DNA of 58,387 nt from Stramenopiles sp. TOSAG23-6 (GCA_900128565.1 LT635918.1:1-58387); one strand, 5' to 3'; positions 3,163-58,387 are shown, counted from the stretch's first letter. Notes: a model not told the origin generated them from the sequence alone. Program-made: numbers and translations.

Positions 3163-4394
3163 TTAATGTAGTGGGAGTAATGGCTCGGGTGGTTCTGGTG
3201 GAAATAAAGCATCTTCTCTATAAAATGATTTTTCATTTCCTCCGTTGTCCAAATTATTCAGAGGAAGGATAGGAAAGTCACTCGATAGTGGTGCTTTAAA
3301 AGCATTATGCCAATCAGTATTACCGGGTGTTTTTATTCGTTGCGAGTCATTGATAAAACCACTGAATCCTCTGATTGCTGATGAAGGATAATTCATCCAT
3401 GTAGGAAATTTTCCTGTTATTCTACCATTTTTCCTGCCATTTCTCCATCTACCAAAATTAGCTCCTGTCATCATTGATATGTATTGTGAAAAAATATGCC
3501 AAACTCAAAAAGTCTTCAAAACTCAATCAATACGAATTTGGTAGAAAAAAATATATATTTGAAATTAATGATGAAAATATACATATCATGTGCATCTAAA
3601 GAGCTTGGTGCCTGTTTTATAGGGAGCATGTTTTGTAGAATATAATTTGAGAAAGATCTAAGATTGCTACTTGTTTGTAAGGCAACAAATGAAGATCCCA
3701 CATTCGCCGCCACATTCTTGTTATCACCCGTCGTTTTTCTGTCTTTTACATTTTTTAGCTCTGAATGAAACTCAATATATGCTGATGGATTAAATGATGA
3801 TTTTTTTAATTGTGAGGGCACGGGGTGTAATGGATTGCGATAAAACCCATTTGGTTTGTACCCATGCATAATAAAAAGTGGCCCATTCGGGAGCAAAGGA
3901 GGGATTTTACGCACTGGCATTTGCTCTTCATCAATATGATGACGACCAGTATGTGGGTTATCTCCAAAAATAAAAGGCGGGGCGTGTGCTGGTACTGCTG
4001 CGGATAAACTTTCTGCTCCTTGACTACCCATATCTGTGTGTATATCAGGGAATCCGTTAGAACCACTAATACCTGGTTTGCCCCAACCTGCCATAGTTGA
4101 AAGACGATGTTTATTACCTGGGGTTGTTACAACAGGACTCCTCCATGGCGTATCCATACCTTGCCACGGTATAGACGCCCTACGAAGTTGATTTGGGCTC
4201 AAATCAACCTCTTCTACCATTGTTGTGACTGGAATGCCAATTGGATTTCCTGGAAGTGATCCATTTTCTGGGTTATAATTTGTAAATTTTATACTTTGAG
4301 TAAGTTTTGCAAAGAGTAAAATTATCACAAGTATCGATTTAGATTGAGAAAACATGGAAAGTAAGACTCTATATCTTCCATGAGAAGCTTTCAT
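3163..4394 (-). CDS. Pro/Gly-rich hypothetical protein, probably secreted; 2 exons (4394-3583, 3478-3163), 375 aa
   Basis: Hydrophobic N-terminal segment; ORFs 3516-4394 and 3163-3474 join in frame (..LDAHD-ISMMTG..) after removing 104 nt. Confidence 0.65.
3479..3582 (-). other. Non-canonical intron, family member (GTATAT...CAATACAT; equivalent AT..AC register 3481-3584)
   Basis: 5' GTATATTTTCATCATT, 3' ATATTTTTTCACAATACAT; removal restores frame; internal palindrome and branch motif degenerate. Confidence 0.75.
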
Positions 4395-4615
4395 TATAAA
4401 TACATCAATTAGAATATAACCAGTGGTAATTTATATCATGTAAAGCTGGGCCAAAGGATGCGATGATTTTTTGAAATATGAAGCGATATGAAGAGAACGA
4501 AAGGAGGATACGATTTGAATTGAAATTTTTTTGAAGCAAATAATTTCAAAAAAAACTCCGAAAAGGAAAAATCGGTATTCGTATTCTATTATTGGTTGAA
4601 ACGGTTACAAATTAC

Positions 4616-4755
4616 TACTTTGTTTCACTTTTACATACGTATAGTATCTACTCTCGCGTTTTCGTCAACATTACTTGGGTAAAGTTACTTTGTTTCACTT
4701 TTACCTACTTATAGCATCTACTCTCGCGTTTTCGTCAACATTACTTGGGTAAAGT
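4616..4755. repeat. Tandem duplication, 2 x 70 bp, in a divergent intergenic region
   Basis: 4616-4685 vs 4686-4755 with 3 mismatches. Confidence 0.9.
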
Positions 4756-4855
4756 TCCGATATTTATATTTATATCCCAGTGGAGATGAGAAAAGTATAA
4801 TTGAACATTCCATTCACATTTGTCGTTTGTAATCAAAACACCTACTTAAACTAAG

Positions 4856-7129
4856 ATGCCGACTAGGACTGGTTTTGGAGCGTATATTAATTACTCGAGG
4901 CTAATCAATCGTAAGCTGCGAGCTGCTGACAGGGAAGCACACAATAAGTTACTAGCTGATGCACGTGCTTCTGTTGATTCAGGTACACCAAAATCAATCA
5001 AAATGAAACATGTTCACTGGAATCAAGGTAATGATAACAAAAAAAGACGAATTTCAAGAAAAGTCGAGATGCAAAACCGTCAACTGTTAAAAATGTTAGA
5101 AAAAGTTGCCATCAGAGATATGAAGGACGGTTGCAGTTGGAATAAAAAATTAAAGAAACTAAAGATTGCCAAGAGCCCAAACCTTGCATGGCAAGAAAAA
5201 GAATGTAAACGAATAAATAGTCAGAATAAAATGCTTTTTTCTCGGCTTCAGCACGCTCCAGGGGATAGACAAACGAGTTTTAAACAGCTACAAAAAGAAC
5301 ATCGACGAAATCGTCAAATTGTTTGTAAACTTTCATCATATGACAAATCTATGATATCCAAGCGATCTAAAGTGAAAGAAGGGCGCAAGAGACCGGGTAA
5401 CTTTCAGGGTGAGAAAATAAACCCAAGTGTAGTGGGTTTGTCTGATACACAACGGACGCCTGTTGACTCAAGGAAATTATCTACAATAAAAAATAACTTT
5501 GTAAATGAAGATAACTTCTATGATGAAGAAAATGTGTCGTTGACTGAGAAGGGCTCAAATAACTTAGAAATAGATAATATGGAATCCATGTCAAAATACC
5601 CAGACACAACACAATTGCACACTTCAAATATAAATAGTCTAGTGCCAGAGAATTCAGATAAAACATGGAACTCCGCGGCAACCAAAAATTATCAGCATAA
5701 TAATGAAGTGAGTACAACATTATCTAATAAATTGAATAAAGATGGATCATTACCCTCCATGTTTCATGACGATGTTGAGTCCCACAACCCATTTGAATTA
5801 CAAATTCCTCGACATTTCAATGTTAAAAAGAGTAAAGTAAGCGATGCAAACAATAATGTAAGACAGATAAAAGAAAAACGAATAGATATCTCAGATGGCA
5901 ATGAATATACGTATGAAGAATTTATTGAATACTATGGAGGTGAAGAAGAATGGGATGCAGCCATTCTTAGTACGACGCAAATAACACATAAAACATCGAG
6001 TAAAAATCAACAAAAAGTTAGAGTATCTTTTACGAAACATCCGTCTACAAATAATCAAACTTTTTATCATCGGCAATCAAACAAGGTGGAAAGACGCCGC
6101 CCTCAAACTGCTCATGTGAAAAGATCATTCGAAAAACGTACAAAAACACCAATTGTGATTCGAGTGCGTCCTGCTACAGCATCGATAAAATCTGATAAAT
6201 GTATGCGGAAGAATCTTATTTTAGGAAATGCAAAGAGTATTCAGTCACCTTATAAAAAAATACAGATCCCATTTTCTGTAAAGCGACGGAGCAAGATAAA
6301 ACGCCATATTAAAATGTCAGCAAATCAAGCCCATAACAAGAAAGAAGCTCAAAACAATCGTAAAAAACGTGTCGTTGACATTGGCGCTAATACATTACCA
6401 AGGTCGAGAAAAAAAAGAATCAATGTGACCAATGTCTCCGATCAAGTGAAAACAGGTAAATCAAGTGTAGCATATGTAGGTAATAAATCAAATAGTCTTG
6501 GACAGAAAAGAAAGGTTGCAAGGCCAAGGAAAAATAAATGTCAGGGAATGTTAACTATTTCCAAACTGGAAAAACAACGATCCTATGAACAACAAAGATT
6601 TTCAAGATCATTCGCTTGGGAAGTTGGCGAAGATATTGTACTGTATCCTTTGGGAAATATTTTTCATAATTGTGAACATAAAGACCCAAATAGCACTGAT
6701 TTAGACCAGCAAAATTTTTCAATACAAAAGCTAAAGAATAGTCCACTTTCGTGGAACATCCATATAATAGATATTGGTACTAAAAGTACGGCAGGTGAAG
6801 ATGCTAGTACAGCAATCAAAATTATTGCAGAATCAAATGTCGAGCTAGATGATAAAACCCAAAGCGATCAATTAGAAAATCATAAACTTATAATATTTTT
6901 AAGTTGTTCTCAGATAAAAAAAGCCTGTCAAAAGTCACAGGATCTGCGCAAAGCTTTGAAAAACATCAATCTTTTAGATGCAAAGGGAAATCATAGTCGA
7001 TTTGCTGCTGCTCTTTATGATTCACATTTCGAGACAAGTTTGATTTGGCGTTTTGTAACCTGGATTACAAAAAATATTCACGTGGAAAATACTAAAGATG
7101 ATCAATTAGCATTGAAATTCAGTTGCTGA
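4856..7129 (+). CDS. CFAP97/KIAA1430-domain protein with long low-complexity tail
   Basis: N-terminal HNKLLADARASVDSGTP..KVEMQNRQLLKML..RINSQNKMLFSRL matches the CFAP97/hemingway domain pattern; 757-aa ORF. Confidence 0.65.
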   Translation: MPTRTGFGAYINYSRLINRKLRAADREAHNKLLADARASVDSGTPKSIKMKHVHWNQGNDNKKRRISRKVEMQNRQLLKMLEKVAIRDMKDGCSWNKKLKKLKIAKSPNLAWQEKECKRINSQNKMLFSRLQHAPGDRQTSFKQLQKEHRRNRQIVCKLSSYDKSMISKRSKVKEGRKRPGNFQGEKINPSVVGLSDTQRTPVDSRKLSTIKNNFVNEDNFYDEENVSLTEKGSNNLEIDNMESMSKYPDTTQLHTSNINSLVPENSDKTWNSAATKNYQHNNEVSTTLSNKLNKDGSLPSMFHDDVESHNPFELQIPRHFNVKKSKVSDANNNVRQIKEKRIDISDGNEYTYEEFIEYYGGEEEWDAAILSTTQITHKTSSKNQQKVRVSFTKHPSTNNQTFYHRQSNKVERRRPQTAHVKRSFEKRTKTPIVIRVRPATASIKSDKCMRKNLILGNAKSIQSPYKKIQIPFSVKRRSKIKRHIKMSANQAHNKKEAQNNRKKRVVDIGANTLPRSRKKRINVTNVSDQVKTGKSSVAYVGNKSNSLGQKRKVARPRKNKCQGMLTISKLEKQRSYEQQRFSRSFAWEVGEDIVLYPLGNIFHNCEHKDPNSTDLDQQNFSIQKLKNSPLSWNIHIIDIGTKSTAGEDASTAIKIIAESNVELDDKTQSDQLENHKLIIFLSCSQIKKACQKSQDLRKALKNINLLDAKGNHSRFAAALYDSHFETSLIWRFVTWITKNIHVENTKDDQLALKFSC

Positions 7130-24470: not shown

Positions 24471-24488
24471 CGTAAATGAAAGTCAATG

Positions 24489-35706: not shown

Positions 35707-35729
35707 TGTGCTCGCTTGGGTAGTCTCTA

Positions 35730-35744
35730 GCAAGTCTTATAATC
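35730..35744 (-). other. Primer binding site, half-tRNA type
   Basis: GATTATAAGACTTGC abuts the 5' LTR with no TGG; its complement GCAAGT-CT-TAT-AA-TC looks like a tRNA anticodon arm. Confidence 0.55.
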
Positions 35745-36282: not shown

Positions 36283-37336
36283 TTATTTTCCAGAAGGTAC
36301 AGCTCTAATCTTATCAATTGGACAAGTGCCATTTGATAATAACCACGGATCAATGCACGCAGCGTGAAATTGATGAAAACATGTGTTGTGAAAAAATATT
36401 TTAGAAAAAAATCGTTAGGTACGTAATTTCGTATGAAAACAAAAATGAAATGCATCATGAAAATATACATGGAAGCCTCCGGACTTCTTCGCCAGGAAAC
36501 ATCTCTCCAAGACAAATAGCGCATTCGTCATTTTTGTCATTTTTGTCTTTTATTTTAGGTGTATCGACAGTTAGATCACACACTTTGCCACAACTACCAT
36601 CCTTGTTTCGTTTTCTACTTTTGGGCAGCATTGCTAATTCGCTCTTAGTTAAACGATTTTTATTCACTATGTTGTCATCAAGTCTACTTAAACGAAAAAA
36701 ATCTTCCTCTGATAATTCTCGACTCATTAATGATAATTGTGAGACTATATGTGATCGCAGTCCATTAAGGAAATTTTGATGAGTTCGGTTAGGTCTGCTT
36801 ACATGCGGATGAGGTCGAGTGTTATTTCTACTCGAATTATCGATATAGTCTTCCAAGTCTTCATCAGATTCGTCAGAATTAAAAAACACACCTAAACCTG
36901 CTGATCTTGAGCGTGACTCAAGTCTAATCCTTTGGAGGCGACTCAAACTTCTACCAGCATTGGCCTGAAGGATTCTATTTCTTTGCTCTTGTCTGGATCT
37001 TTCATGCTCTTGCCTTTGTAGTGAACGTGCCATGGCAGCATCAGCATCAAGTTGTTCTTCCAAGGCATTTCTATTACTATTTCTATTCTGCACAGAAGAA
37101 CGCCGATTCAATCTTGGACTACGACGAAGTGGGCTTGAAGATGGCGGAAGCAAGATCACATCTGGTGAGGAATTCGTGCGACGTCGCTTTTTTGGTCTAC
37201 GGACTGCAACATGTTGTTGGTTTGACGATGAAGACGTCGACACAGAGTTACTCGTAGAACGCGTACGCCGTCGACGTCGATTAGATTCTTTGGGAGAATC
37301 ACCACTCAAATCTATCACACTGTCAGCATTACTCAT
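36283..37336 (-). CDS. RING-H2 E3 ubiquitin ligase; 2 exons (37336-36469, 36380-36283), 321 aa
   Basis: After removing 88 nt it reads [42 protein letters not shown]; SIM-like VIDL/DVILL and UIM-like DAAMARSLQ in the N-terminal half. Confidence 0.9.
36381..36468 (-). other. Non-canonical intron, family member (GTATAT...CAACACAT; AT..AC register 36383-36470)
   Basis: Splits the RING motif; flanked by direct repeat CATGT; contains TACGAAATTACGTACCTAAC; no AG until after the remaining RING ligands. Confidence 0.9.
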
Positions 37337-37692
37337 TGCCCAAAATGTATTATTGCTCTCTCTATATTTCTTTGCATTATATTTTCGCAATCACTCAAAT
37401 CAAATTGAATAAATTATTTATAATAGAGGGAAGACAGGTAATCTATCTAAATCAAGGCAGTTTACTTATTTTCAGATTCCAATTAATTTTTGCGATTTTA
37501 TTCAAAATGATGGATTTATAAATTTTGAGCCGTTTGCGTTTGGGTTTGCCGCGAAATTTGAGAGTCAATTTTTGATGGACATCACCCGACGTTTGACAAC
37601 TTTTATTGGTGCCTACGAGAAGAAGTTCAGGGATTTCAGGCTTTTCAGCTCTCTTCTTCCCTCGTCCCGAGGATATCACAAAAGCTGGAGCT

Positions 37693-43600: not shown

Positions 43601-45119
43601 CATTACAGCCCTTGAAAAAAAATTGAAAGGGTCCTCTTTTATTACGTATTTATCGAACTTATCGAAAAAATCCAAATTTGGTGAACTTCCGATACAACTT
43701 CCGAAAGTATCTGGTTTCAAAGCTGTAGATACTCTCAAGGGTCGTACTTACGTTGATCATCCTGCCAATCCATATGGTGGACATGGTGCCCAAGGCGTCC
43801 GTGGTCAGAATAAACGTAACGATGCTGCATATTTCACTTCAAAATATTGGGAATCTCTTTCTAAATTACGTAAAATTAAATTTTCCGAGGACACTAAAGG
43901 AATTCCATTGGAATGGTTTTCTTGGACACGTTTAGTATTTGACGAGTGTCACGAAGCAACTTGCCCTCCTGAACTAGAAGCTGATTTCGATGAAGATGAA
44001 GGTTCTACAAAGATTCGTGGGAAATCCAAGGAAGCTAAAGCTGCTAAACTAAAAGCTATGTCAAAAGAAAAGAAATCAGAAAAGAGACGTAAAGTTAAAA
44101 ATGTCACACAACGAGCTCTTGCGGCACGTGAACTTCTAGGACTTGCAGCGGAAGGAGATGCAGAACGTCCACTTAGGGCTCGTGGTGGAGTATGGGGTTT
44201 GACTGGTACACCAATGCTTTCGTCGGAAGATCGAGTTATTGAGCTTGCGTCAATGTTTCGAACATATTGTATTGGTCAAGCGAAACATTGGCGTCGTTCA
44301 GAACGAGCTAGCCGTCGTGATCTTTTCTTACAACAACTTGATTCTGAAGGATCCATTGATTATGCAATTGCAAGAAGAGAACACGCCCAAGAATTTATAA
44401 ATTTCGCAGTCCAACGAAATCGTGCAACTGAATTTAATGGTGAAAAAGTAGAGAAAATTTGCGAAGTATCTATGTCAGCTGAAACATCACAAAAATTTCA
44501 TGAATTATCACCACAATCTGCTTTTGCAATTGGTATGAAAACAGATGAAGTGGTATGTAAGAATTTCAATGAAATTGAGATACTTCGCGAGATAGCTCCA
44601 GCGCGCTCAATAAAGGTAGCAGAGATTGTTCGAAAGATTCATGTCGAAGATCCAGTCGGTAAGGTTGTCGTCTTTGCACCAGATGCAGATGAAGCCTTTA
44701 ATGCAGTTTGCAAAGCATTATCTGACGCTCCAGGTGGAATGAGCTTCTTTAACGATGAAACTCCTGCATCACAGAGACGTGAAATTATCTCCTCTTTTGC
44801 ATCTGTAGATCAGCTCGAAAGTGATCTTAAAAATCCACGTGTACTTGTTTTACCATTTTCTCATGCTGCTGGACATAATTTTCAGTATGTAAGTTGTAAT
44901 ATGATTCTTGTTGCACCTCTTTGGCTCGGTGATGATGGGGTAAGAGCAGTAGCAAATGAACAACAAGCGATTGGTCGAATATTTCGTTCTGGACAACTTA
45001 AGAAATGTACAATATATCGAGTACTTCTGTGTGGACCAAATGGGGAGAAAACAATCGACCATTCTCTTTATGGGGTTAATACTGATGCATCTAACATTGA
45101 GGCTGCGACTAGTTGTTGA
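37693..45119 (+). CDS. DNMT5: DNMT5-type cytosine-5 DNA methyltransferase fused to an SNF2 ATPase; 2 exons (to 39358; from 39484)
   Basis: TACSGTDGP, SCEIVPFKQAYL, AGT|SCKDFS, IFENVDGAPW, YGLPQVRRR, GDLAGNAMS; SNF2 motifs GGVLADVMGGGKT, DECHE, LTGTP, QAIGRIFRSGQ; start codon uncertain. Confidence 0.9.
39359..39483 (+). other. Non-canonical intron, family member (ATATGT...AAATACAT; AT..AC register 39357-39481)
   Basis: Removing 125 nt restores AGTSCKDFS; flanking direct repeat TACAT; TACCTAAC and AAATATTTTTCCAAAATACAT present. Confidence 0.88.
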
Positions 45120-45219: not shown

Positions 45220-48200
45220 TCATAGAAATGACAATAGTGATTTCCCTGTTGCTCCAAGTGCACTCCGTCGCAGTGCTTCTCCTGGATAAGAATTGAACCA
45301 CCCCCCACTACCTTCAGATGTATCAGTTTCATTGAAGCCTGGTGCGCGAACTTGGTTATGAATAGACACAATTTCAAATGCAGGATTAAGCAACTCTAAG
45401 CCAGCACATTGCAAACGTCTAACCATTACACCATCTCCCCGAAGCATTCCTAATTGAATATCTCCCGAGTTTTCAAGTACAGATTTGCAACCAGCTCCAT
45501 CACGTCGATGTGTGTACTGTAATGGATATCCATCTAATCCAATAAACTCCGTTGAATTAATATCTTGTGGTTGAGGAATTTCAAATGTTTTCAAAAGTTT
45601 TGGAGGTAATGGAGGAAATACAACCCACGCATCCTGGGAATCAACACGTGGCCATAAAATTTTTCTGCCTTCATAATTAAGTTCCCAATGTACAAGTGAT
45701 AAAGCAGTATTTTTTAGACGATGACGCGGAATTTTCGATAACTTTGACAAAGAAAGATCAAAATAAATATCTGCATTAATCAGAATAGCCGCTTGATTTT
45801 TTAGATGTTCCTCTGCATACCGTAAGGCATCACCAAATGATATGTGTTTTCCAATCGGAACGTGGACCAATTTATCGAGACCTCGATATTTTCTACTAAA
45901 AGAGTGGAATTCTTCAATGTTGATGTCTTTAGTAGTGTTGCCTTCGCTTAAGACATGAATATTATATATAAATGGATTTAAAGTGTTATTGCGCAATGCT
46001 TCGTCTAACTCTCTTTGTCTACTTTTTCGTTTAGGGTTATAATATTGTACTATTAAATGCACCTCAAGACAGTTTGGCTGATCACTATGAATGACATCAT
46101 CTCGACAAACATGGTGTACATCAGTAGAGGTGATTTCATTGTCTTCATTCATTCTGCTTTGCACTAGCGTTTTTTCCATAGTTTCCCTAATATTTTGACG
46201 TCGTTTATAAATGTCACGAAATAACTGATCAATAGCGGCATCTCTGTTTTCGAGAAAATCTGGTACATTTTCTTCAACATTATTTGCCGAATTATGCAAC
46301 ACATATTCATTATTATCTCTTGTATAGTTAAAGGATTGACCATATAAAAATGGAAGAATAGAATCGGTTTGCAAACTACTCCAACAATGACTCATTGCAG
46401 ACAAAAGACCCGACCACTGATTTTGCAATGTATAAATCATAGTTGCCAATGAACCATCACCATTACTGTGAAGTAGTTTTGCACCTCTACTATTTCCAAA
46501 AAAGTTAGAATCATTTTGTATCTCATTTAGTAAAATCAGATCTATAGATGGAGCCCTCCACTTCACCAAAGCAAGATGGATTACTATCATAAACTCTTTT
46601 TCATTAAAAGCTTCAAGGCTTACACCCATATATTGTGAAAAATATTCCAAATTAAAAAACTTGTTAGGCACGAAACCTCTACATTAAGTTGGGTACAAAA
46701 AAAAATCTGAAATTAGTACTGAAAACAAAAAAATCAAAAGGTAGTACTGAAAACGAACATTAACCTTGAGAAAGCTTTCACATTTTGTAATCCGAGATCT
46801 GAGTTAGATGCAATCGATAAAAGTAACCTAGCAATAAAAAAACTTATCGATTCGTCCTTTGGTTCACCATCTAAATTCCATTCANTNGNTNCNANCTGTT
46901 TTTTTTTNTATGAANATTTNCATCACAAAAATCTCTCCCATGACATTGATCTAATTTAGTATCGTTGTTGTCTTCATATTCTTCATATTCGACTTGTGCA
47001 TATATTGCACTCAAATACCGTTTCACCAAAAGATCACTACAAAGATCAACTCTTTCAATAAACGGAGTTCCTGTTTCATATACTATATTACTTGTTTTAT
47101 TGTCTATCTCATAGTCAGTCAAAGCAGATAAATGACCACCATTTGTATATAACCAGAGCGCTTCTTCGTGTGTAACAATTGACTCAGAAATACGACGCTG
47201 TGCCATTAAATTCCATCCAATTAGACTTAATAGTTCAGCAAGTTGAAGTCTTACTCCATCAACAACATCAGTTATATTATGCAGATATTCAAACCCACCG
47301 TTAATAAACTTAGCAGCTCGAGTTTGATATTTTTTTAATTTCTTAATAATTGTTCCATAAGTAACATTGTATGAATTTGATAATGATTTTGAAATGTTGG
47401 GTAGTCTATCCAACAAAATGGATAAGCACATTCGAGCATCATTGTATCTACGATGAGTGGAGAGGATTGAAGACATTTGAACAATTCGACGAATTTGTGA
47501 TCCAACATTTTCTAATTCTTCTTCGATGTTTTTTTTCTTTTTTGAATTCAATATTATGTTCGAACGATCAATCTCTCGTCGTATAAACTCATTTGATAGT
47601 TTTGGAACATTTGGCAATTTTCCATGTGAATGAACTATTCCAGACCAACTGATTTCAGATTCACTTCCCCATCCTAGTGTATAATATTTCTGTATCGATG
47701 CTGCTAGTGATTCAGCATCTACACTAAATGTTACATTATTTGATATTTTCGTTTTGTTTTCTCTTAAATCAATTGGTTTCATACTTTTAATACCATCTAA
47801 ACAGACTAGACACTTACCTCTAGAAATTCCAGGGGACCCACAAGTATTGTGAAAAAATATCTCAAAACAAAATCGTTAGGTACGAAATTTCGTATGAAAA
47901 AACAATTTAAATTAGAAATTCATATAAAACATACTCCATAAACCTTCAGCGTCAACAAACGAAGACAACCATGGATCAATTAGCATATACAATGATTCAT
48001 ATTTTTTATGTGGCCCATGAGCATTCGATGTAATGTAACTCATCCAAAATTCATTTGGATGAATATTTGTATGCTTGGGTGGTTTATGAATTTTACCCGT
48101 GGAACTTTTAAATGTTTCTGTTGGAGTATTTTCTGTATTTATATAATTTACAAGCCATGAACGAAATTTATGCCATGATGAAACAGTTGGCGAAAATCCT

Positions 48201-49692
48201 CTAAAACTTACTCGTTTGTTGAATTGTGTTCCTTGAGGAGTCGCCATCCACAAAACTTTATTTTTTTCAAAATATTCTTTCTTTGTATTTGCATTTATAA
48301 TTTGATGCTTTTCATCTACAGATTTTGCAACATTTGCACGAAGTTTTTTCCACTTTGAGTTATCTAAAGTCCAATCTTCAGGATTTTCGTCATTTAACAA
48401 ACCAGCGATATGAGTGCGCGAATAGTTGACACCTAATCGATATAACTCTGTGGTAGATATACATATATTGTGAAAAAATATATTTTTTTATAAAATTTGT
48501 TAGGTACGAAATTTCGTACGAAAAAAAAACTAAATTTGAAAAAAAATAAAACATCCGCTTACCTTCTACAAAATCTGGACGTGCTCCATTTGGAAGTAAC
48601 CCTAAGAAACCAAAAACATGAGGAAGTATTGTGAAAAAATATATTACCTTTGAAATTTGTTATTTACAAAATTTTGTACCAAAAAAAAATAAATTCAAAG
48701 TTGATTGAAATACAAGAGCAAAAAAAATATTAGGTACAAAATTTCGTATGAAAAAAAAATCGAAATTGAGATGAATGATGAAAACAAACATTACCACCAT
48801 ATGCGTAATGTTCCGCTATGAGCCATTGTGCAAAATGTGGCGAGACTCTCATTTCACTACTCAAAAATATCATCGGCCAACTTGAAGTGTCAGGTTGATT
48901 GAAAATAGTCAATTGATTATCAACCCATTCAAGGACTTCTGTTGCTGATAAACGTGTCGTGTCAGTACTGAGTGGAACTTTTCGAATATATTTTTCTCCC
49001 CATATCCATTTTATGTTTTGAGTATTTCGTATAAATTTTTTTGTACCCACATCAGATATTGAGTTTATTTCATATATTGTAACACATAAGTGCACAGCAG
49101 GAATGTTACCATACTCTGCATTGTTCAGTGAAACAAGTAGGCTATTTAAATCTTCCCAGTTGTAGTCAGTAATAATTATGTGAATTAATAGTCCAATAGA
49201 TGGATATTGATTGACCAAAGGGAGTTGAGCTGATAGAGGCCAATATGAAAATTCAACTGTTTGTGATTTTTGAATATTCCCATACACTGCCATTACAGTA
49301 AACAAAAAAAAACCTCCCGTGGAAGGTAGTTCAAAAGGCAAAGTCTTTTTATAGTCCATGATATCAGTACTATTAGGTGACTCCGTGATATCGGTATTAG
49401 GTGAAAATGGTGTTGGTAAACAGTCTACATAGAGCGATGTTGCGTGATATACATCTCCATCGGCACTATTCACGTTAATTTGCCGCAGACGTACACAAAG
49501 ATTTTCTATTTCAACGTCGCTGTCCCCAGAAAAATGTCTTCTTACTTTTGCTTTTACAAGGACGGACGGAGAAAAGAGTAAGGACAAATTTGATGGACTC
49601 CGTATTTCTACAGATTCAGAAATACTTAAGGTTGCACAGTTCTTTACATGAATAAACACTATCAATAAAGTAACTAAATATATGTAACGCAT
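45220..49692 (-). CDS. Large signal-peptide protein with glycosyltransferase-like domains; 6 exons (49692-48790, 48623-48557, 48462-47935, 47841-46922, 46883-46759, 46678-45220), about 1333 aa
   Basis: Four ORF-track fragments join in one frame (4002 nt total); N-terminal signal; GT-A-like LLVSLNNAEY..EMRVSPHFAQW; C-terminal LIVQYY..RQREL..INADIYFD..SQDAWV. One junction lies in an N-rich patch. Confidence 0.6.
46679..46758 (-). other. GT-AG intron with family-like 5' end and branch region (80 nt)
   Basis: AT|GTTCGTTTTCA...TTTTGTACCCAACTTAATGTAG|; joins ..FSRL-I-GFVPNK.. in frame. Confidence 0.65.
46884..46921 (-). other. N-rich patch, probably a collapsed family intron
   Basis: Begins AT|GNAAATNTTCAT (family: AT|GTATATTTTCAT), ends in T; removal joins ..DFCD-EWNLDG.. 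in frame. Confidence 0.45.
47842..47934 (-). other. Non-canonical intron, family member (GTATGT...CAATACTT)
   Basis: 93 nt, contains an in-frame TAA; perfect TACGAAATTTCGTA followed by CCTAAC. Confidence 0.8.
48463..48556 (-). other. Non-canonical intron, family member (GGATGT, or GTAAGC at 48562, ...CAATATAT)
   Basis: GTACGAAATTTCGTAC palindrome plus CTAAC; either donor keeps the frame. Confidence 0.75.
48624..48789 (-). other. Non-canonical intron, family member with duplicated core (GTTTGT...CAATACTT)
   Basis: 166 nt; two copies of the palindrome/branch module; joins YGGN-PHVFGFLG in frame. Confidence 0.78.
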
Positions 49693-50007
49693 TGTTTAAA
49701 GATATACTGAAACTCTGCCGAAATAAAAATAATCCTCTTTTTACCTCAGTCCACTAAAACTTTATAAAAAGAGGCTAAAAACTTGGTTTGAATTCATTCA
49801 ACATTTGAACATCAAATATGCAAAAAACAAAAAATTTAGCCGCAGGTTTGTCCGCCGACCGGTCAATTTTGACGTTTCGGTTTCACTTTTCCATAAAAAG
49901 GATACATTGCCTTTGCAACAACAACGAGAGATCTTGACAAACGTAAATCAGATTCAAGTAAGCTCTTTTCCAAATATCATTTTGACATAAATCTCAAATA
50001 GTGCATT

Positions 50008-53000
50008 ATGTCTGGGGGAGATGTTGCAAAAAATTCAGAGCTTCTCGCACTACAAAGACTTGATGAGAAGTCTGTGCGTCTACAACAATCTGGTCGATAC
50101 ATGGAAGCCTTGGAATGTATGGAACGAGGTCTAGTGCTTCGACAACATTTTTTTGGAACTGACAGTGATGAAGTTTGGACCGCATGTAAAACCGTTGGCG
50201 AATTGTGTAATTTGTTATCAATGACATATTTGCAACAAGGAGAGTTTCGAATGGCAGAAAGTTTATTACGTAAGGCTGAAATTCTTCACCAAAACGATGA
50301 CGCAGGTCTAGCAGTAACATTTAATAATCTCGCTTGTTTCTATCGACGACGTGGAAAGTTGCGTGCCGCATTACTATATTTAAAGAAGACTCTTCGCATA
50401 GAAGCTCAACTCGAAGATGCAGATAATCCTGGTGATACACATTTGAATATGTGTGCTGTTCTGTCTCAGCTTGGTCGGCATTCTCAAGCTCTGGAACATG
50501 CTCAAGCTGCACTTATACTCCTGCAGGAAGAATTGTTCACACCTTCTCCTGATGGTACACAGAGAGAGCTCGGTTCTGATCGTATTGCTGTATTGGCTAT
50601 TGCTTACCACAATATTGGAGTAGAACAAGAATTTTTAAAGAAAATGTATATGGCCGTTCGATCGTATGAGAAAGGTGGTGAGCTTGCAGAATCTCATTTA
50701 GGAGGAGATCATGGTATCACGACGACTCTTCGTAATTCACTTATGGCTGCGCGAAGGACATTGAATCGAAAGTCACCGAAAGGTAGATCTAGTAAACGCT
50801 CGGGTAAGTTACCTGCCTTATCGTCGCGTAGAACTTCATCGCCTGGAGGTAAGGGTAGAAGAGGTCGAAAAGGATTCATTGGAAACAGATCTTCAACAAA
50901 GTCAACAAAGAGTCCAAAAGGCGGAAGAAGTCGAAGATCAAATGGAAGAAATGAACAGCAAATAAGTAGTGTTGAATATGAAGGAAGAAGAAATAGTACA
51001 TGGACTGACAATGATGATTGGGCACAAATATCGCGTCAAAGTGCTGGTAGTAGCTATGGTGGTGGAAGTTCATATGGTCAACAATTGCCACCATTAGAAG
51101 AACCAAGTTCATCACCTGCGCAATCTCCAATGTTTAATACGGGGGGAAATATATCTGCAGCTAGTGCACCCCCATTGACAAGGCCTTTAACAAAACGTCT
51201 GAAAGGGGGAGATGATGCACAAATTAATATGGTATCTAATCGTAATGGAATTGATAAAGTTCAACATGCGAAATATAATAGTCTTGAAGATGAGATCACG
51301 GCGATATGCCGAGAAAAAAGCCAATTACTCTCTATGTGGCAGAGTATTGACACAAAAATGGAAGGCCGTGTCCCTCTGTCAAAATTCGATGCATGGGCTG
51401 AAAAGCGATTTCCTTTATTAGATTACAAACCAGCATTGGTGAAAGCGTACAGATTCGTTTGTGCAGGTGCAAATAATGTTGCTAACAGAGGGGAAGATTC
51501 AGTTGAAAGTCATGAATTTAGAGATTTAATCCGCATGCTATTTTATTTTAATAGAACTAGTATGATAAGCGATGTAAATATGATTGACGGAACAGAATAT
51601 CTTAGTAAAGAGCAATTGACACGCGCGCTGTTGCATATGGGATTTTCTTCTATAGAATCACTTGATGTTAATGATATATTTGAAACGTTAACAAAGAAAC
51701 TGTCTGCATCTAAGAGCGAATCTTCAGGAAATTATGTAAGTCGTCATGACTTTTGTGAATGGTGCTCTTTAGAGAGACTTCCGGTCAATACGCCTGGAAA
51801 TATACTTGAAGTTACGAAAGAAAAGCGGAACGATGGTTATACGAAAGAAAATGTGGGCGATGATCATGCGAAAGAAAAGGGGAATGATGAAGTATACGCG
51901 AAAACAAATAATGATAAAAGTATCAATGATAGCGCTTCTTTTATTACTGTGGATAACAGCGATAAAGATGAATTAAGCACTGAAGACAAAATAAATCAGA
52001 AAAAGGTTGCAATAAAAACAGATGAAACAGAAGACAATCACACATCGAAAAAAACTGAAGGTAAATCCACTACAGAAGAATTTAAAGCAGAAACAGTCAG
52101 TGTCAGGGGAAATAGAAAAAGAAGTAGTCGAGCATCAACAAGTCATTCACATTCCAAAAGTAGGCCATCAACAAGCCATTCAGTTTCCAGTGTATTTGGG
52201 AAAATAAAAGATACAGCAGTTAATATCAAAGACACGATTAAAGATACAACCGTTCATATCGTTCATGAATTAGAGCATGAATTAGAGCATGATTTACAAA
52301 CAATGGAAAATTTTGTTCTTCATAAAAGCGACATGCACGCAGATGCAGATAAAAATCTAGCTGTTACAGAAGTAGCAGATAAAGCTAAAACAAAGGAAGA
52401 AACAGTTCCATTAGCAAGTGGTGAAGCAGATGCAGATGTAAAAGAGGCAAAAGCGAAGGCCGAGGCAAAAGCTAAAGCTGAAGCCAATGCAAAGGCCGAA
52501 GCAGCTGAAAAAGTAAAGGCTGAGGCAGATGCAAAAGAAAAGGCTGAGGCAGAGGAAAAAGAAAAGGCTGAAGCAGAGGAAAAAGCAAAGGCTGAGGCAA
52601 AAGCAAAGGCAGAGGCAAAAGCAAAGGCTGAAGCAGAGGAAAAAGAAAAGGCTGAAGCAGAGGCAAAAGCAAAGGCTGAAGCAGAGGAAAAAGCAAAGGC
52701 TGAAGCAGAGGAAAAAGCCAAGGCTGAAGCAGAGGCAAAAGCAAAGGCTGAAGTAGAGGCAAAAGCAAAGGCTGAAGCAGAGGCAAAAGCAAAGGCTGAC
52801 GCGAATGCAAAGGCTGAAGCAGAGGCAAAGGCTGAAGCAGAGGCAAAAGCAAAGGCTGCGACAGATGCAAAATCAGAATCTTCTCAAAGGACAAATACAC
52901 CATCTGACGTTGTAGTAGTTGTAAAAGCAGGTCCATTTTTTGCAAAGTTTCAACCTTCTGCAACAAACAAAAGTGTTATAGTAAATTCATTTAGACCAGA

Positions 53001-53409
53001 AAAAGCTGGGGGTTCCCCATTAGATACGGGAGGTGTAAAGATTGGAATGCTACTTGTTCAAATTGATGCAATCAATGTTGAGAATATGAAAAGTGAAGAA
53101 GTATCAAAACTGTTAGCCGAATCAAGACCAAGGGAACGAATGGTAACGTTTACATTAGTCGATGAAGTATTGATATCAGACGATGTATCTTCAGGCTCTA
53201 AATCAGCACCTGGACCACCTAAAGCACAAGTAGTAACACCTGGACCACCGAAACCAAAAGTAGTAACACCTGGACCACCTAAACCAAAAGTAGTAACACC
53301 TGGACCACCGAAACCAAAAGTAGTAACACCTGGACCACCTAAACCAAAAGTAGTAACACCTGGACCACCGAAACCAAAAGTAGTAACACCTGGACCGCCT
53401 TCAAAGTAA
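50008..53409 (+). CDS. TPR-repeat protein with EF-hand-like (calflagin-like) region, AEAK coiled coil, PDZ-like domain and Pro-rich repeats
   Basis: AVTFNNLACFYRRRGKLRAAL, THLNMCAVLSQLGRH, AIAYHNIGVEQE (TPRs); WQSIDTKMEGRVPL..VESHEFRDLI; GGVKIGMLLVQIDAINV (PDZ-like). Confidence 0.8.
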   Translation: MSGGDVAKNSELLALQRLDEKSVRLQQSGRYMEALECMERGLVLRQHFFGTDSDEVWTACKTVGELCNLLSMTYLQQGEFRMAESLLRKAEILHQNDDAGLAVTFNNLACFYRRRGKLRAALLYLKKTLRIEAQLEDADNPGDTHLNMCAVLSQLGRHSQALEHAQAALILLQEELFTPSPDGTQRELGSDRIAVLAIAYHNIGVEQEFLKKMYMAVRSYEKGGELAESHLGGDHGITTTLRNSLMAARRTLNRKSPKGRSSKRSGKLPALSSRRTSSPGGKGRRGRKGFIGNRSSTKSTKSPKGGRSRRSNGRNEQQISSVEYEGRRNSTWTDNDDWAQISRQSAGSSYGGGSSYGQQLPPLEEPSSSPAQSPMFNTGGNISAASAPPLTRPLTKRLKGGDDAQINMVSNRNGIDKVQHAKYNSLEDEITAICREKSQLLSMWQSIDTKMEGRVPLSKFDAWAEKRFPLLDYKPALVKAYRFVCAGANNVANRGEDSVESHEFRDLIRMLFYFNRTSMISDVNMIDGTEYLSKEQLTRALLHMGFSSIESLDVNDIFETLTKKLSASKSESSGNYVSRHDFCEWCSLERLPVNTPGNILEVTKEKRNDGYTKENVGDDHAKEKGNDEVYAKTNNDKSINDSASFITVDNSDKDELSTEDKINQKKVAIKTDETEDNHTSKKTEGKSTTEEFKAETVSVRGNRKRSSRASTSHSHSKSRPSTSHSVSSVFGKIKDTAVNIKDTIKDTTVHIVHELEHELEHDLQTMENFVLHKSDMHADADKNLAVTEVADKAKTKEETVPLASGEADADVKEAKAKAEAKAKAEANAKAEAAEKVKAEADAKEKAEAEEKEKAEAEEKAKAEAKAKAEAKAKAEAEEKEKAEAEAKAKAEAEEKAKAEAEEKAKAEAEAKAKAEVEAKAKAEAEAKAKADANAKAEAEAKAEAEAKAKAATDAKSESSQRTNTPSDVVVVVKAGPFFAKFQPSATNKSVIVNSFRPEKAGGSPLDTGGVKIGMLLVQIDAINVENMKSEEVSKLLAESRPRERMVTFTLVDEVLISDDVSSGSKSAPGPPKAQVVTPGPPKPKVVTPGPPKPKVVTPGPPKPKVVTPGPPKPKVVTPGPPKPKVVTPGPPSK
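52446..52860 (+). repeat. Coding low-complexity repeat (AEAKAK/AEEKEK)
   Basis: Imperfect 18/24-bp units such as GCTGAAGCAGAGGCAAAAGCAAAG. Confidence 0.9.
53207..53400 (+). repeat. Coding tandem repeat, 30 bp x about 6.5 (PGPPKPKVVT)
   Basis: CACCTGGACCACC(G/T)AAACCAAAAGTAGTAA units; G/T alternation gives a 60-bp higher-order period. Confidence 0.95.
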
Positions 53410-53661
53410 AAAATAAAAAGTTACATGATGTAAATTCTAATTCTAATTTTAAAGACTTAAAAAAAAAATCTTCAATTGAATCCTCTATTTAAACTTTCAA
53501 ATACAAATTAGTTGACTATTTTTCATAAATTCTTACACTGTCATAACAGAAATTTGACATCAAAATTGACCGACATCCGTATCGCCAAGACGGCTACTTC
53601 TCTCTATTGTATTGTAAAATAAAAGCATAAAAGAAAGTGTTTTGTGGTTTCGCCGATAAGA

Positions 53662-54408
53662 ATGATGTCAGCATTATATTGTACTCGACGTACTTTTTCA
53701 TCAGCACCTGTTATGATGGGTAAACTTAGTCCTGAAGACTGTTGGGATATACTTCGCGCTTCCAAAGTAATATGCTTCGATGTGGACAGCACAGTGAGCT
53801 CTGAGGAGGGTATTGACGAACTAGCGGATTTTCTAGGCAAAGGGCCAGCTGTAACAGAATTAACTAATCAAGCAATGGGGGGTGGGATGCTTTTTCATGA
53901 CGCACTTCAAGCGCGCCTTGACATTATGCATCCTTCTCGACAAAATATATCGGACATGTTAGAGACTCAGCCACCTCAGTTGAGTCCTGGAATCGCCGAC
54001 TTATTCAAGGCCCTTCGAAACCATAATAAGGAAATTTATCTTGTGTCTGGTGGATTTCGCCCACTCATTAATCCAATGGCTGAAAAACTTGATGTCGCAG
54101 TACCTACAAATATATATGCAAATGAATTTTTATTTAACAACGATGGAACATATAGAGATTTCGACAGAAGTGAACCCACCTCTAGAGCAGGTGGGAAAGC
54201 AAAAGCTGTGGCTAGTATAAAAGCTAAACATGGAGGTTGTAAAGTTGTCATGATTGGAGATGGAATGACAGATGTAGAAGCTAAATACGAAGAAGGAGGT
54301 GCAGATTTAGTCATTGGATTTGGTGGGATTGTCACGAGAGAAGCTGTGAAAGAGGCAGCTGACATTTTCGTGACTGATTTTAAAGAAATTAGTGAACAAT
54401 TGTCATAG
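53662..54408 (+). CDS. PSPH: Phosphoserine phosphatase (HAD family)
   Basis: CFDVDST, EEGIDELA, LVSGGF, GGKAK, MIGDGMTD, IGFGG; first ATG at 53662. Confidence 0.93.
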   Translation: MMSALYCTRRTFSSAPVMMGKLSPEDCWDILRASKVICFDVDSTVSSEEGIDELADFLGKGPAVTELTNQAMGGGMLFHDALQARLDIMHPSRQNISDMLETQPPQLSPGIADLFKALRNHNKEIYLVSGGFRPLINPMAEKLDVAVPTNIYANEFLFNNDGTYRDFDRSEPTSRAGGKAKAVASIKAKHGGCKVVMIGDGMTDVEAKYEEGGADLVIGFGGIVTREAVKEAADIFVTDFKEISEQLS

Positions 54409-54433
54409 TAATAAACTATTTTTTCTTTTGCGT

Positions 54434-56084
54434 TTATTTAGTTTCAAAGTTATTTAACATTCTACTTCTTTCCCAAATACGAACAGCAATGAGATCACAG
54501 AGATTTGTTTCCTTTATATTATCATCTGTCATACATTTATCCTGCGGTAGTGATGGCTTCAGTTTTCGTGTTTTTCGTGTTTTTCGTTTTCGTTTGATAT
54601 TAGTATTTCCTTTTGAATTCAATTGTTTTACATCTTTTGAAAATTTCGGTTTTATGGAAGGAAGTAAGCATATTCCAGATGTTTTTGAGTTTTTTGTGAT
54701 TCTCATTGGATCTGATGACTTATTGAAATGCATCACATCATGACTGGAAAAGCCGAGCATTTTATTCAGTCGAATAATCCATCTTCGTGCCAAATTAATA
54801 TCTGATGAAGTAATTACACCGTCTTCATCTGAATCAATCATATTAAATGCATCTCGTANTTCTGNTTTTTTTNAANTTGNTTNTTCCTATTGCTGATAGA
54901 ACAACACCAAATTTATTCAAGTTTAATACTTGCTTAATGTTGTGTCTTGATGGTTTTGATGCGGTAAAAGTATTTTCTTTTGTTTTAGGATAAATATCTT
55001 GTACAGCTTTAAATATATCTAATTCTGTCACATTTCGCAATAATAATTCGGAATGTAGAATTCTTAAAGCATAGGTAGCTTTAGTATCTGTCATACTTGT
55101 CTTTACTAGAGTGTAAAAAGCAATTGATCTAAAAGCACTTGTTGCAGCTTTTAATGCTGCAAACTCTGCACTTGCAGCAGTATAAGCAGCAAATGAAGAG
55201 CATACTTTAACGGCTGCATCTTGGGCAATATTAGATGACTTCTTAGCTGAAAGTGCTGAAAACTTCGCAATATTTGCCGCAATTGCGACTTGTCGTTTTG
55301 TTGCAAAACCTTGTGAAAGGCGAACTAACCAGACAAAACGAACACATTTACACACAATAATCTGAATATCCCGGCTTGCTTCCAACGAAGCAGCGGCTGC
55401 ATTCGAATTCATAATGAGTGAAAATCTATTTATTATACATTGAACCACCTTAGCGTCATTTGCGGCATTTTTTCCTGCTTGAAGTGCCTGATGAGCTGCA
55501 GCAGCAATCATTTGATTACTCAGTATGTTTTGATATAATGTTAATGAAGTAGTTATTGCGATATCACTAGCTCGTCTACTGCTTCGCGAAGCCTTAAGTG
55601 CAACGCCGGCAGATATTGCACTCGCAGTTTTTGCCCGAGATACTTGTGCCATTCGAGCCTTTCGGCGTCGTTCTCGCCGAGATGGACAATTTCTATCTAT
55701 AATTATATTCGTTGCACTATTTTCACCTCTGTTAGTAGTGCACACCACGTTTTGTTTTACTTGGGCTGTGCTTTTACCAACATTTGCAGCAGCAATTAAT
55801 GCAGCTTCGAATAAACTATGAGCAGCACATCTTGCTTTAATCTCGTTTAAGTGTTGAAGCTCAGTTGCAACTTTTTGCATTTGTCTTTGATGCTCATATC
55901 TTAGATGCGTTGCAAAAACATCAGACGCAAGTTTTACACAGTCATTTAATTTCGATGCAAAAACATCCGCAGATTTAGCAGCTGAAACAGCACAAGCTGC
56001 AGCAGTAGACGTTGATTTTGACAAGGAACGACAATTTCGTCGTCTAACTGCTTGAAGTCTTTTGCGAACTTCAGGAAAACTCAT
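54434..56084 (-). CDS. Ala-rich helical protein with C-terminal EF-hand; frame broken at N-rich patch 54859-54883
   Basis: ORFs 54843-56084 and 54434-54841 flank ambiguous bases; downstream frame reads RDAFNMIDSDEDGVITSSD. Confidence 0.55.
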
Positions 56085-56426
56085 ATTAGATTAAAGGGTA
56101 TGTATGCATGGATACTGCGTTTGATTGCCGAGTATTATTATACATCACAAAATAGCATATCTGCATTGACCTAACCATTATTATGATATAATTGGACTAC
56201 TTGGAGTGGGTACTCTCCAGGGGTAGGCCGTAGGGTATCAGAGATGTCAAATGTGACCTTTGCGCTGCGTGGCAGTTACGGTGCTTTTTTGGGTATCATT
56301 TGGCTACTATATATACGAAGTTTGCACTAAGAAAGGTTTTACATAGGTTGCTTTTTAGATGTCATCAAGGAATATGATTTATACAATTAGATTCCTAAAC
56401 CTGAAAACCAAAATTAATCCTATATA

Positions 56427-57236
56427 ATGTCAGCTGAAGCCACTTCAAAGATATTTTCGGGTCTCGAAGGCAGCGATGGACTTGTGAGTGTATCAGAGTT
56501 TATTATTAAAGTTTTGCGAGATGAAGATACTTCATTAAAGCTAGGGATTTCCCCTCCTGTACCACCGCAAAGGAATGCATGTGAAAAGCTAATGAAGATT
56601 TTTGAACTTCTAGACAAAACGATGTCTGATAGGATTGACTTTTCTGATTTTCAGCACTTTTTAGCGATACTTTTACATATTAACGTTGAAATCCTTGACG
56701 ATACACATGACAAAGTAGATAGGAAAAGCATTTCTAAACCGAACAACTTACCACCTATACTCCCTGAAAATACTCCATCAAAGAAATCTGTTGTATCACC
56801 TACATCATCGATCGACGTTGAGAAACCAAATTCTGAAGCAAAATCTACTAGTTTTGAAGAGCAAAGCATCCATGATTTATCACTGGATAGCTCAAGAAAT
56901 ACTACACAAACTCCAATACCTATCCTATTTGACACAAATCAAAGTAGCCTGTATCACTCCCTATTGAGAAATGTAAAGCCGAAGATTAGAACTTGTAAAA
57001 ACCAATGGAATTCTCGACAACGGCGTCATTTATATGATGAACAGAGAAAAAAATTTCTGAAATCTAGTATTACAAAAAAAAAAAAACAGAACAGAAAACA
57101 GAAAAATAATAAAAGTCCTTCTAAAAAAATAGCTCGTGATCGTAGTGTAAGTTCTCAATCAAATATTGTAAGGCCATCGAAATCGAAGAAGGCGAAAAAG
57201 AAGATAAAAAAGAAACGAATAAATAAAAGAATTTGA
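56427..57236 (+). CDS. EF-hand-like protein with basic low-complexity tail
   Basis: IFSGLEGSDGLVSVSEF and IFELLDKTMSDRIDFSDF. Confidence 0.6.
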   Translation: MSAEATSKIFSGLEGSDGLVSVSEFIIKVLRDEDTSLKLGISPPVPPQRNACEKLMKIFELLDKTMSDRIDFSDFQHFLAILLHINVEILDDTHDKVDRKSISKPNNLPPILPENTPSKKSVVSPTSSIDVEKPNSEAKSTSFEEQSIHDLSLDSSRNTTQTPIPILFDTNQSSLYHSLLRNVKPKIRTCKNQWNSRQRRHLYDEQRKKFLKSSITKKKKQNRKQKNNKSPSKKIARDRSVSSQSNIVRPSKSKKAKKKIKKKRINKRI

Positions 57237-57290
57237 TTTACTTTTAATTTGAACTATACATACAATGACATGTCAATGTCATCAAAATAA

Positions 57291-58332
57291 TCATACTGCA
57301 TCAATGTGAAATATAACTTTCCCCAAAAATGAAGATCCAGAAAATATACAAGTGAAAAATCCCACAACAAAGAGAATAAATGAAAACAATAAAACCTTAC
57401 TTTTTTTGCGTCGTCCTAATTCTTCTATTAACTCCACAGTACATGAATGGTTACGAAATCTCTGTGGTTCAATCATTGAAGATTGTTTAGGTTCAGTATG
57501 AGCCCATTGCCAGACAATCTTTGACGGTATAAAGAATATAACAATCATACCAATACTCATTGCTGTAAGTTCAAATAAAATGTCAAGGTTTGGAATGATA
57601 AATGCAAATAATAAAGATGTTGTCCAAAATAGTATTGCGGAAACATAAAAGAATGCTGTCGGGATTTCTTCTAAAATTGCTGCTTTAGTTTCATCCATTT
57701 CTGCTTCCTCAGCTTCAAGTAGTGCAGCAGTTTGCATAGCAACAGCTGTGTTTGGACTCAGTGGACTCGTCATTGCTTCTACGTCATTATTACTACTTTG
57801 TAAAAGATTGTCATTAACAGGATATACTCCATACATTGGATCATGATCCATTCCATTTGCTGCAACCATGTAGTGTAAAAAGATATTTTAAATTCGAAAT
57901 TCGTTAGGTACAAACTTTGGTACGAAAAAAAAAACTTCATGATGGAAACGTACAAAGGCATTGTTTCAGTTTTCTTATAGAAAAAAGGCTTGAGAAGAGA
58001 AAATAAAGCAGAACGCGCCGGGAAATGATTGATCGGAAATTGTGAAATCATAACTACAACTAGAGCTATCCGAGCTACATCAAGTGGCCAAATACTGTAA
58101 AAAAATATTTGAAAAAAAATCGTTAGGTACAAAATTTCGTATGATAAAACAAAATAAATTCGAAATCGAAAAAAAATAAAACAAACAACCTCCAATATTT
58201 CCATAGCCAGTTGGAAAAGAGTTTTTTAAAATATTCGTTTTTGACGTGGAACCGAATTCGATGTAACCCAAAGATGCTACTAAAGCATATAACATCACTT
58301 GAAATATGATAGAATAAATAATTACTCTGTCC
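57291..58332 (-). CDS. Amino acid transporter (Aa_trans/SLC38-like), 5' part outside the window; exons 58332-58187, 58089-57954, 57867-57291
   Basis: YALVASLGYIEFGSTSKTNILKN, QFPINHFPARSAL, IPNLDILFEL..IVIFFIP; fragments join in frame after removing family introns. Confidence 0.8.
57868..57953 (-). other. Non-canonical intron, family member (GTACGT...CACTACAT)
   Basis: 86 nt; GTACCAAAGTTTGTACCTAAC; joins ETMP-L-VAAN in frame. Confidence 0.8.
58090..58186 (-). other. Family intron (GTTTGT...CAGTATTT); an in-frame GT-AG alternative (58095-58182) also exists
   Basis: 97 nt; TACGAAATTTTGTACCTAAC; joins NIGG-WPLD. Confidence 0.7.
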
Positions 58333-58387
58333 ATGTATTTTGGAAAAATATTTCAAAAAAAATCGTTAGGTACAAAATTTCGTACGA
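58333..58387 (-). other. 3' part of a family intron (...TTCCAAAATACAT), truncated by the window end
   Basis: GTACGAAATTTTGTACCTAAC; the last 24 or more nt match the DNMT5 intron 3' end. Confidence 0.8.

Follow-up and report, generated by a model that had tools for sequence, protein, structure and literature searches.

A family of related inserts with non-AG 3′ ends interrupts five genes of a marine stramenopile

Related inserts in five genes

We analyzed a 58,387-nucleotide (nt) stretch of DNA from Stramenopiles sp. TOSAG23-6 (GCA_900128565.1, LT635918.1:1-58387), hereafter called the window. It is AT-rich (33-41% GC), gene-dense and eukaryotic, with long open frames in the standard code. A first-pass annotation, made from the sequence alone, had reported nine related inserts in five genes, all in the same orientation as the host gene and all resembling introns that lack an AG acceptor. 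Each of the nine was recovered with the donor and the end that had been assigned to it, and we added a tenth. These ten copies, which are probably introners removed by a spliceosome that disregards AG, are the subject of this report.

An nhmmer profile made from the eight complete copies recovered every insert that had been claimed (E = 4e-17 to 1.8e-07) and also found two copies outside its building set, at 58333-58387 and 46629-46728. Over the last 55 nt, median identity was 74% (36 pairs from nine copies, with the tenth left out). All ten copies are sense to their hosts, nine on the minus strand and one on the plus strand; by simple arithmetic, the chance of such uniformity is 2^-10, or about 0.001.

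Numbered by position, copy 1 (3479-3582, minus strand, 104 nt, phase 2) lies in an unnamed gene represented by the open reading frame (ORF) 3516-4430 and sequence downstream. It begins with GTATAT and ends with ATACAT, is flanked on both sides by an AT duplication and matches the profile with E = 4e-10. Its middle has diverged further than that of any other copy and lacks the CTAAC motif described below, yet both ends are preserved. Copy 2 (36381-36468, minus strand, 88 nt, phase 1; profile E = 3.9e-17) splits a Cys codon of a RING-H2 domain (..RRLP|CFHQFH..). The single plus-strand member, copy 3 (39359-39483, 125 nt, phase 1), starts with ATATGT and lies directly before the catalytic SCKDFS motif of a DNMT5-like gene (37597-45119, plus strand) that encodes a cytosine methyltransferase and an SNF2 domain. 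When copy 3 is taken out, this gene becomes one continuous open frame.

Four copies fall within one minus-strand gene at 45220-49695. Copy 4 (47842-47934, 93 nt, phase 1), the only one with RNA evidence, runs from GTATGT to ATACTT. Copy 5 (48463-48556, 94 nt, phase 1) has GG instead of GT at its 5′ end. Copy 6 (48624-48789, 166 nt, phase 0), which runs from GTTTGT to ATACTT, gave two profile matches, at 48625-48698 and 48729-48787; these two cores stem either from a duplication within the copy or from a second insertion nested in it. The tenth copy (46628-46770; profile match 46629-46728, E = 6.5e-07) is degenerate and was absent from the first-pass list. Its 3′ end, ..TTTTTCACAATATAT, lies at 46628 in this gene that already bears three copies, and its 5′ border is obscured by upstream stop codons and by masked letters at 46885-46920. 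The 15 single-letter Ns that we noted are spread over two short stretches, 46885-46920 and 54859-54883. With the unsettled tenth copy excepted, the exons of the four-copy gene are open across about 1,300 codons. We obtained no Pfam family for it, and no homologue in protein searches with exons 47936-48460 (at near lengths) and 48790-49695 (at longer lengths).

The remaining copies lie in a second multi-insert gene, at 57291-58387 on the minus strand. Copy 7 (57868-57953, 86 nt, phase 2) runs from GTACGT to CTACAT, and copy 8 (58090-58186, 97 nt, phase 1) from GTTTGT to CAGTATTT. Copy 9 (58333-58387; profile E = 2.1e-10) is cut by the end of the window and consists of the 3′ part only. Three exons of this gene are open, so that all exons are open in the genes bearing three to four inserts. 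In a search of representative proteins, its last exon gave two distant matches (37-39% identity), both of which stop short of the junction at 57953.

Excision at the homologous ends produced a stop-free joined frame for all eight complete copies, with phases 2, 1, 1, 1, 1, 0, 2 and 1, as the first-pass annotation had claimed for all three intron phases. The chance of this outcome for frame alone is, again by simple arithmetic, (1/3)^8, or about 1.5e-4.

We found no ordinary GT-AG intron interrupting a frame in the window, using the gaps between same-strand ORFs and a scan for GTAxGT..CTAAC, an approach that short in-frame introns would escape. The gaps look intergenic, and the matches to the scan are either family copies or sites within open frames. 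All ten detectable introns in these 58 kb thus come from a single family.

Elsewhere in the window, two long ORFs of 950 and 1,871 amino acids share one frame on the minus strand (27268-35736), with one in-frame stop, 32884-32886, between them. A copia-type reverse transcriptase (RVT_2, E = 7e-28) is encoded by the downstream ORF, and the whole looks like an intact long terminal repeat retrotransposon in which one stop divides gag and pol. It contains no copy of the family. An Rfam scan of the window gave no match.

Position of the 3′ ends

Since GT/GC..AG pairs that keep the frame arise by chance, frame alone is insufficient to place the borders of most copies. We therefore listed all such pairs within 60 nt of each border that keep the frame and add no stop. 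For copies 1 to 8, there were 11, 0, 22, 21, 9, 16, 2 and 18 of these alternatives. One explanation of the family is thus that its members are ordinary GT-AG or GC-AG introns with nearby canonical borders that cost a few codons, in which case the non-AG ends would be a coincidence of the repeat. In its favor, seven of the eight complete copies have at least one alternative. At copy 5, where the homologous donor position is GG, a good canonical pair, AAG|GTAAGC...CCACAG (-6/+15), is in frame and may mark the true borders. The case is different at copy 2, which has no alternative, and at copy 7, where both alternatives use a donor that lies 38 nt into the intron. At copy 8, joining the family donor to the AG at -5 would break the frame, and the pairings that use this AG in frame start from other GT donors, at +4 and -59.

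The RING-H2 intron (copy 2) contains no AG at all. The last 20 residues of its upstream exon fit positions 1-20 of the Pfam family zf-RING_2, the split TGT codon provides the Cys at position 21, and the downstream exon aligns with positions 23-42 from its second residue onward, its first residue standing unaligned at position 22. The proposal that this intron has no usable AG and that its removal rebuilds the RING-H2 motif was thereby borne out.

The DNMT5 intron (copy 3) can be placed by homology on both sides. The upstream exon aligns with the Cryptococcus DNMT5 structure 7r76_A to residue 408 (E = 3e-13), and the downstream exon begins at residue 411 (whole-sequence E = 9e-4). Between these residues the window supplies exactly two, a T and the S of the split codon, and there is no gap. 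Three orthologues, P0002, P0003 and P0004 (67%, 47% and 48% identity), read VP.G..F.AGT(S/V)CKDFS, the same as the model with a non-AG end. Removal of the insert therefore rebuilds the catalytic motif, as had been suggested, in a form colinear with 7r76 and with all three orthologues. A start at GT is impossible here in any register, and an AG at -34 is unused. Each of the canonical alternatives would destroy residues that are conserved in the three orthologues and in 7r76.

The nearest named protein, P0001, illustrates the effect of an AG rule. This EukProt record, which has 'MAST3' in its name and so marks the host as a stramenopile, is 97% identical to the DNMT5-like protein over the part searched. 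It reads GTVS, eleven residues that equal the translation of the last 34 nt of the intron, and then SCKDFS, which matches the -34/-34 GT..AG pair among our alternatives. Read against the orthologues, the GT-AG gene model swaps 11 conserved residues beside the catalytic Cys for translated intron. Since P0001 carries intron-derived residues, the copy 3 insert is present in that record as well. Aligned with the continuous DNMT5 frame at 37597-45119, P0001 has no more than 34 mismatches, with 13 gap openings. These gaps seem to be several open coding stretches that its gene model spliced out, probably as artefacts of a GT-AG-based prediction.

We examined RNA from seawater. Five metatranscriptome runs from two studies contain parts of 46921-54858, a region that spans three of the ten copies; four runs were mapped as contigs, with a likeness threshold of 90%. 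In the polyA run X3, a 168-nt contig (depth 5) aligns with 47933-48075 and resumes at 47839, skipping 93 nt with a 2-nt ambiguity. This joint is exactly the removal predicted for copy 4 (47842-47934), at the position foretold to the base. On the gene strand, the joint can be read as GT..TT or equally as TA..TG or AT..GT. It therefore excludes, for this intron, the AG at -19, every GT-AG alternative and the register ending in AC. An AT..AC register was considered for the family as a whole; it is possible solely in copies 1 to 3 and is ruled out by the RNA in copy 4. Other joints in the contig mapping link different copies of the family, and we read them as repeat artefacts.

With the contig contradicting canonical borders at copy 4, no pair at copy 2 and conserved residues lost at copy 3, we consider it very unlikely that the family consists of ordinary GT-AG or GC-AG introns. 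Every test that we ran agrees with 3′ ends that fall at the homologous position and lack AG, and this conclusion is supported. At four of the eight complete copies (3479, 48463, 48624 and 58090), it is homology with the rest of the family that argues for such ends. The first-pass annotation had recommended mapping RNA reads across non-canonical junctions; our mapping of RNA contigs yielded one junction, in one polyA contig and at a non-AG end. Together with the colinearity at DNMT5 and the fit to the RING family, it supports the proposal that the 3′ splice site is defined independently of AG, with a spliceosomal mechanism that we infer.

Among the four runs, family sequence makes up the bulk of the 534, 501, 394 and 65 RNA contigs mapped. 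In the bins that hold the family (47716-48775), contig depths add up to 45-148 for run X4 and to 835-5,900 for the remaining three, whose highest values are 1,200-5,900, compared with 0-10 in neighboring exons; this implies that many copies are transcribed. The RNA contigs at 47716-48775 have many differing flanks (loose ends), and several other copies show ..CAT|GTATGT or ..CAT|GTACGT at the 5′ border. A metagenome scan with a degenerate family pattern hit at least 119 loci, and none of those listed was a family member by the nhmmer profile; the pattern was too loose for this result to bear on the abundance of the family. Searching viral contigs for exact matches to a 17-mer taken from the 3′ motif gave 47 loci, again with no family member among them.

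Two explanations other than splicing would also account for a joined sequence. The inserts could be recent transposon insertions that are retained in RNA, their hosts being disrupted alleles or pseudogenes, and the joined contig could derive from an insert-free allele or strain. The contig is not from an identical haplotype, since it differs at 2 of 143 letters, the joined form is known here from RNA runs alone, and the 67%-identical orthologue is uninterrupted at the DNMT5 site. However, insertions that are not spliced need not be sense in ten of ten cases, nor should they leave every exon open in genes with three to four inserts or restore the frame exactly in all three phases. The same DNMT5 insert, moreover, is found in the separately catalogued, 97%-identical P0001. 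We regard retention as improbable.

Alternatively, the inserts might be excised from DNA, like the internal eliminated sequences of ciliates, so that the expressed genome is insert-free. In favor of this are their short length, their AT-richness, the 2-nt border repeats and the precision with which they can be removed, and a joint in RNA cannot distinguish removal from DNA from removal from RNA. However, DNA excision has no need of a sense bias, a 5′ splice-site hexamer or a branch-like motif, and family sequence is abundant in polyA RNA contigs. Nuclear dualism, moreover, is not known from stramenopiles. DNA excision strikes us as scarcely credible.

Anatomy of the element and its possible splicing

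In the sense of the host gene, the family consensus is GTATGTTTT ... TACGAAATTTCGTACCTAAC ... ATATTTTTTCACAATAC(A/T)T. Each copy is laid out as a 5′ start resembling GTATGTTTT, a core, CATACGAAATTTCGTACCTAACGATTTT, with a small palindrome, and the conserved 3′ block ATATTTTTTCACAATAC(A/T)T. The 5′ end is GT in six of the eight complete copies (GTATAT and GTTTGT twice each, GTATGT and GTACGT once), AT in one and GG in one. None of the ten 3′ ends is AG: seven are AT and three are TT, so that the final base is T throughout. Across the family, conservation is highest in a block within the last 20 nt.

CTAAC is found 32-43 nt upstream of the 3′ end in eight of the ten copies, one copy has ATAAC and one has neither; a run of five to seven Ts follows the motif. 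Its distance to the end varies over 32-43 nt, which argues against a fixed spacing from the branch site as what sets the cut. In five of the nine copies that have a CTAAC-like motif, AGs occur between it and the 3′ end, and in copies 3 (39359) and 4 (47842) they are demonstrably skipped. Copy 1 has lost the core and kept both ends, which hints that selection acts on the 5′ hexamer and the 19-nt 3′ block.

The core includes a perfect 14-nt palindrome, TACGAAATTTCGTA (for example, 47884-47897, minus strand), whose right arm runs into the branch-like TACCTAAC. The only helix kept by RNAalifold is a 5-bp central hairpin at this palindrome. A helix that joins the two ends of the intron was considered and rejected: end duplexes reach -0.3 to -2.7 kcal/mol, and only the central hairpin is conserved. 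End-to-end pairs appear in the minimum-free-energy fold of three of the eight copies.

We put the probability that the copies are an introner family spliced by an AG-ignoring spliceosome at roughly two in three. According to this model, a short, non-autonomous, transposon-like element of 86-166 nt would have landed in coding exons of a marine stramenopile of the MAST-3 type, and its copies would be excised from pre-mRNA as spliceosomal introns, presumably by the major (U2-type) spliceosome. The element would bring with it a yeast-like 5′ splice site (GTATGT), the CTAAC branch-site motif, the T-run and the 19-nt 3′ motif ATATTTTTTCACAATAC(A/T)T. The 5′ cut would fall before GT and the 3′ cut after the final (A/T)T, with intervening AGs passed over. 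Possibly the 3′ motif defines the acceptor, rather than an AG or a distance. The last two nucleotides would be one copy of a 2-nt target duplication, and splicing out the element with one duplicate would therefore restore the original frame exactly.

Several observations weigh against this model. The RNA evidence amounts to one junction, in a contig of depth 5 that is anchored by 24 letters. Given its departure from the window at two of the 143 aligned letters, this contig may stem from another strain, possibly an insert-free one. Exon contigs lie on both sides only at 47842; the flanks of 48463 and 48624 were uncovered and provide no evidence either way. For four of the eight complete introns, there are GT-AG alternatives that keep the frame and start at the family donor or at one nearby, and the homologous 5′ position lacks GT in copies 3 and 5. 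The terminal inverted repeats, GTAT/ATAC, are no longer than about 4 nt. Just four of the eight copies have the final 2 nt of the intron repeated immediately before the element, and repeats of 3-5 nt are present in two. With such minimal inverted repeats and a partial duplication, the transposon origin that we suggest for the family is weakly documented.

U12-type introns have the donor GTATCCTTT and a branch site, TCCTTRAC, about 10-15 nt from the 3′ end; they accept A or G at +1 and tolerate 3′ ends other than AG. The most serious mechanistic rival to the model above is splicing by a transformed minor (U12-like) spliceosome that uses the conserved TTTTTTCACAAT near the 3′ end as its branch site. 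The family consensus GTATGTTTT agrees with the U12 donor at seven of nine positions, one copy begins with AT, and the best conserved block is no more than 20 nt from the 3′ end. Non-canonical ends of minor introns are also documented, and Blastocystis has minor introns (PMC10639083, in excerpt).

However, RTATCCTT occurs at none of the eight family 5′ ends, as the first-pass annotation had stated; its nine occurrences in the window all lie elsewhere. The layout, with GTATGT, CTAAC 32-43 nt before the end and a T-run, is of the U2 type. We found no branch site of the TCCTTRAC type in the last 20 nt of the copies, and TACCTAAC lies 32-43 nt away instead. The candidate branch adenosines of CACAAT would be 6-9 nt from the cut, less than the 10-15 nt of U12-type introns, and the AT..AC register is excluded in the sole intron with RNA support. 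Splicing by a minor spliceosome is thus unlikely, though less so than the other rivals considered here.

Relation to known introns and implications

Huff et al. reportedly described introner elements in 2016. Introners are known from Micromonas, Aureococcus and other protists and fungi (PMC9860276, PMC11282704 and PMC7789003, each in excerpt). The present family resembles them in its many short, similar copies in unrelated genes, its sense orientation and its own splice signals; its short inverted repeats and target-site-like duplication may be further parallels. As with introners, taking out the element with one presumed duplicate restores the frame. Whereas the introners of another stramenopile, Aureococcus, have canonical splice motifs according to the excerpted text of PMC7789003, AG ends are found in none of our ten copies. 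Large introner surveys start from annotated introns, and families with unfamiliar ends are inspected or discarded (PMC12130899, as excerpted). A family such as the present one would therefore be missed.

Two known systems come closer with respect to the 3′ end. In Fritillaria borealis, non-canonical introns, mostly AG-AC and AG-AT, derive from miniature inverted-repeat transposable elements (excerpt of PMC11282704) and are spliced by a modified major spliceosome in which divergent U2AF paralogues bind the non-canonical 3′ ends (PMC13326754, in part). These introns, as portrayed in the excerpts, have non-AG 3′ ends, AT among them, as our family does, and a recent gain from transposons such as we suggest for it. 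However, none of our eight complete copies has the AG start of Fritillaria introns; the 5′ site and the branch motif are of textbook U2 type here, and only the acceptor departs. The hosts also differ, Fritillaria being an animal (a tunicate) and ours a unicellular stramenopile.

In Amoebophrya (Syndiniales), introners have inverted repeats of 8-20 nt that pair the intron ends, no preferred terminal dinucleotides and direct repeats of 3-5 nt (PMC7789003, within the excerpted portion). Like our host, Amoebophrya is a marine protist, and the same excerpt reports repeated introns with borders other than GT/AG and short direct repeats that overlap the exon/intron borders. In contrast to Amoebophrya, the two ends of our copies pair over about 4 bp at best and are uniform, with GT in six of eight copies and a last base of T in ten of ten. 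The present family thus differs from those of both Fritillaria and Amoebophrya in combining a textbook donor and branch motif with a single sharp (A/T)T acceptor consensus and no terminal helix.

Minor introns offer a further comparison. Termini of the AT-AT and AT-AA kinds are documented, and Blastocystis, which is also a stramenopile, has hundreds of short minor introns that are mostly AT-AC (both from the excerpted part of PMC10639083). Like U12-type introns, as far as that excerpt describes them, our family has non-AG 3′ ends, a first base of A or G and motifs within the intron that are strongly conserved. In contrast to them, it has RTATCCTT in none of eight copies and a clear branch motif 32-43 nt from the end, followed by a T-run.

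Among the papers listed in our literature searches, none joins introners or non-canonical introns to MAST lineages, and the main texts of the MAST genome papers that we checked, their supplements apart, contain no discussion of introns. Tentatively, these observations could extend beyond one window. In the MAST-3 lineage, the major spliceosome may no longer need AG, and one element family may supply most or all introns; nuclear splicing that does without AG would then have arisen independently for a third time, the others being Fritillaria and Amoebophrya. We consider this broader proposal possible, although somewhat doubtful.

Few signals of eukaryotic gene expression are as conserved as the AG acceptor, and its known exceptions, in Fritillaria and Amoebophrya, have messy and diverse termini. 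Gene models of MAST-3 genomes that follow GT-AG are wrong at these sites, the catalogued DNMT5 model being one example. If the MAST-3 lineage has dropped the AG rule, it would be the cleanest case, in which a single, sharp consensus has taken the place of AG and nothing but the acceptor rule has changed. With a donor and a branch site that are normal and a non-AG acceptor that is uniform, such a family would allow the choice of the 3′ splice site to be studied in isolation, along with the parts that U2AF1 and the second-step factors play in it.

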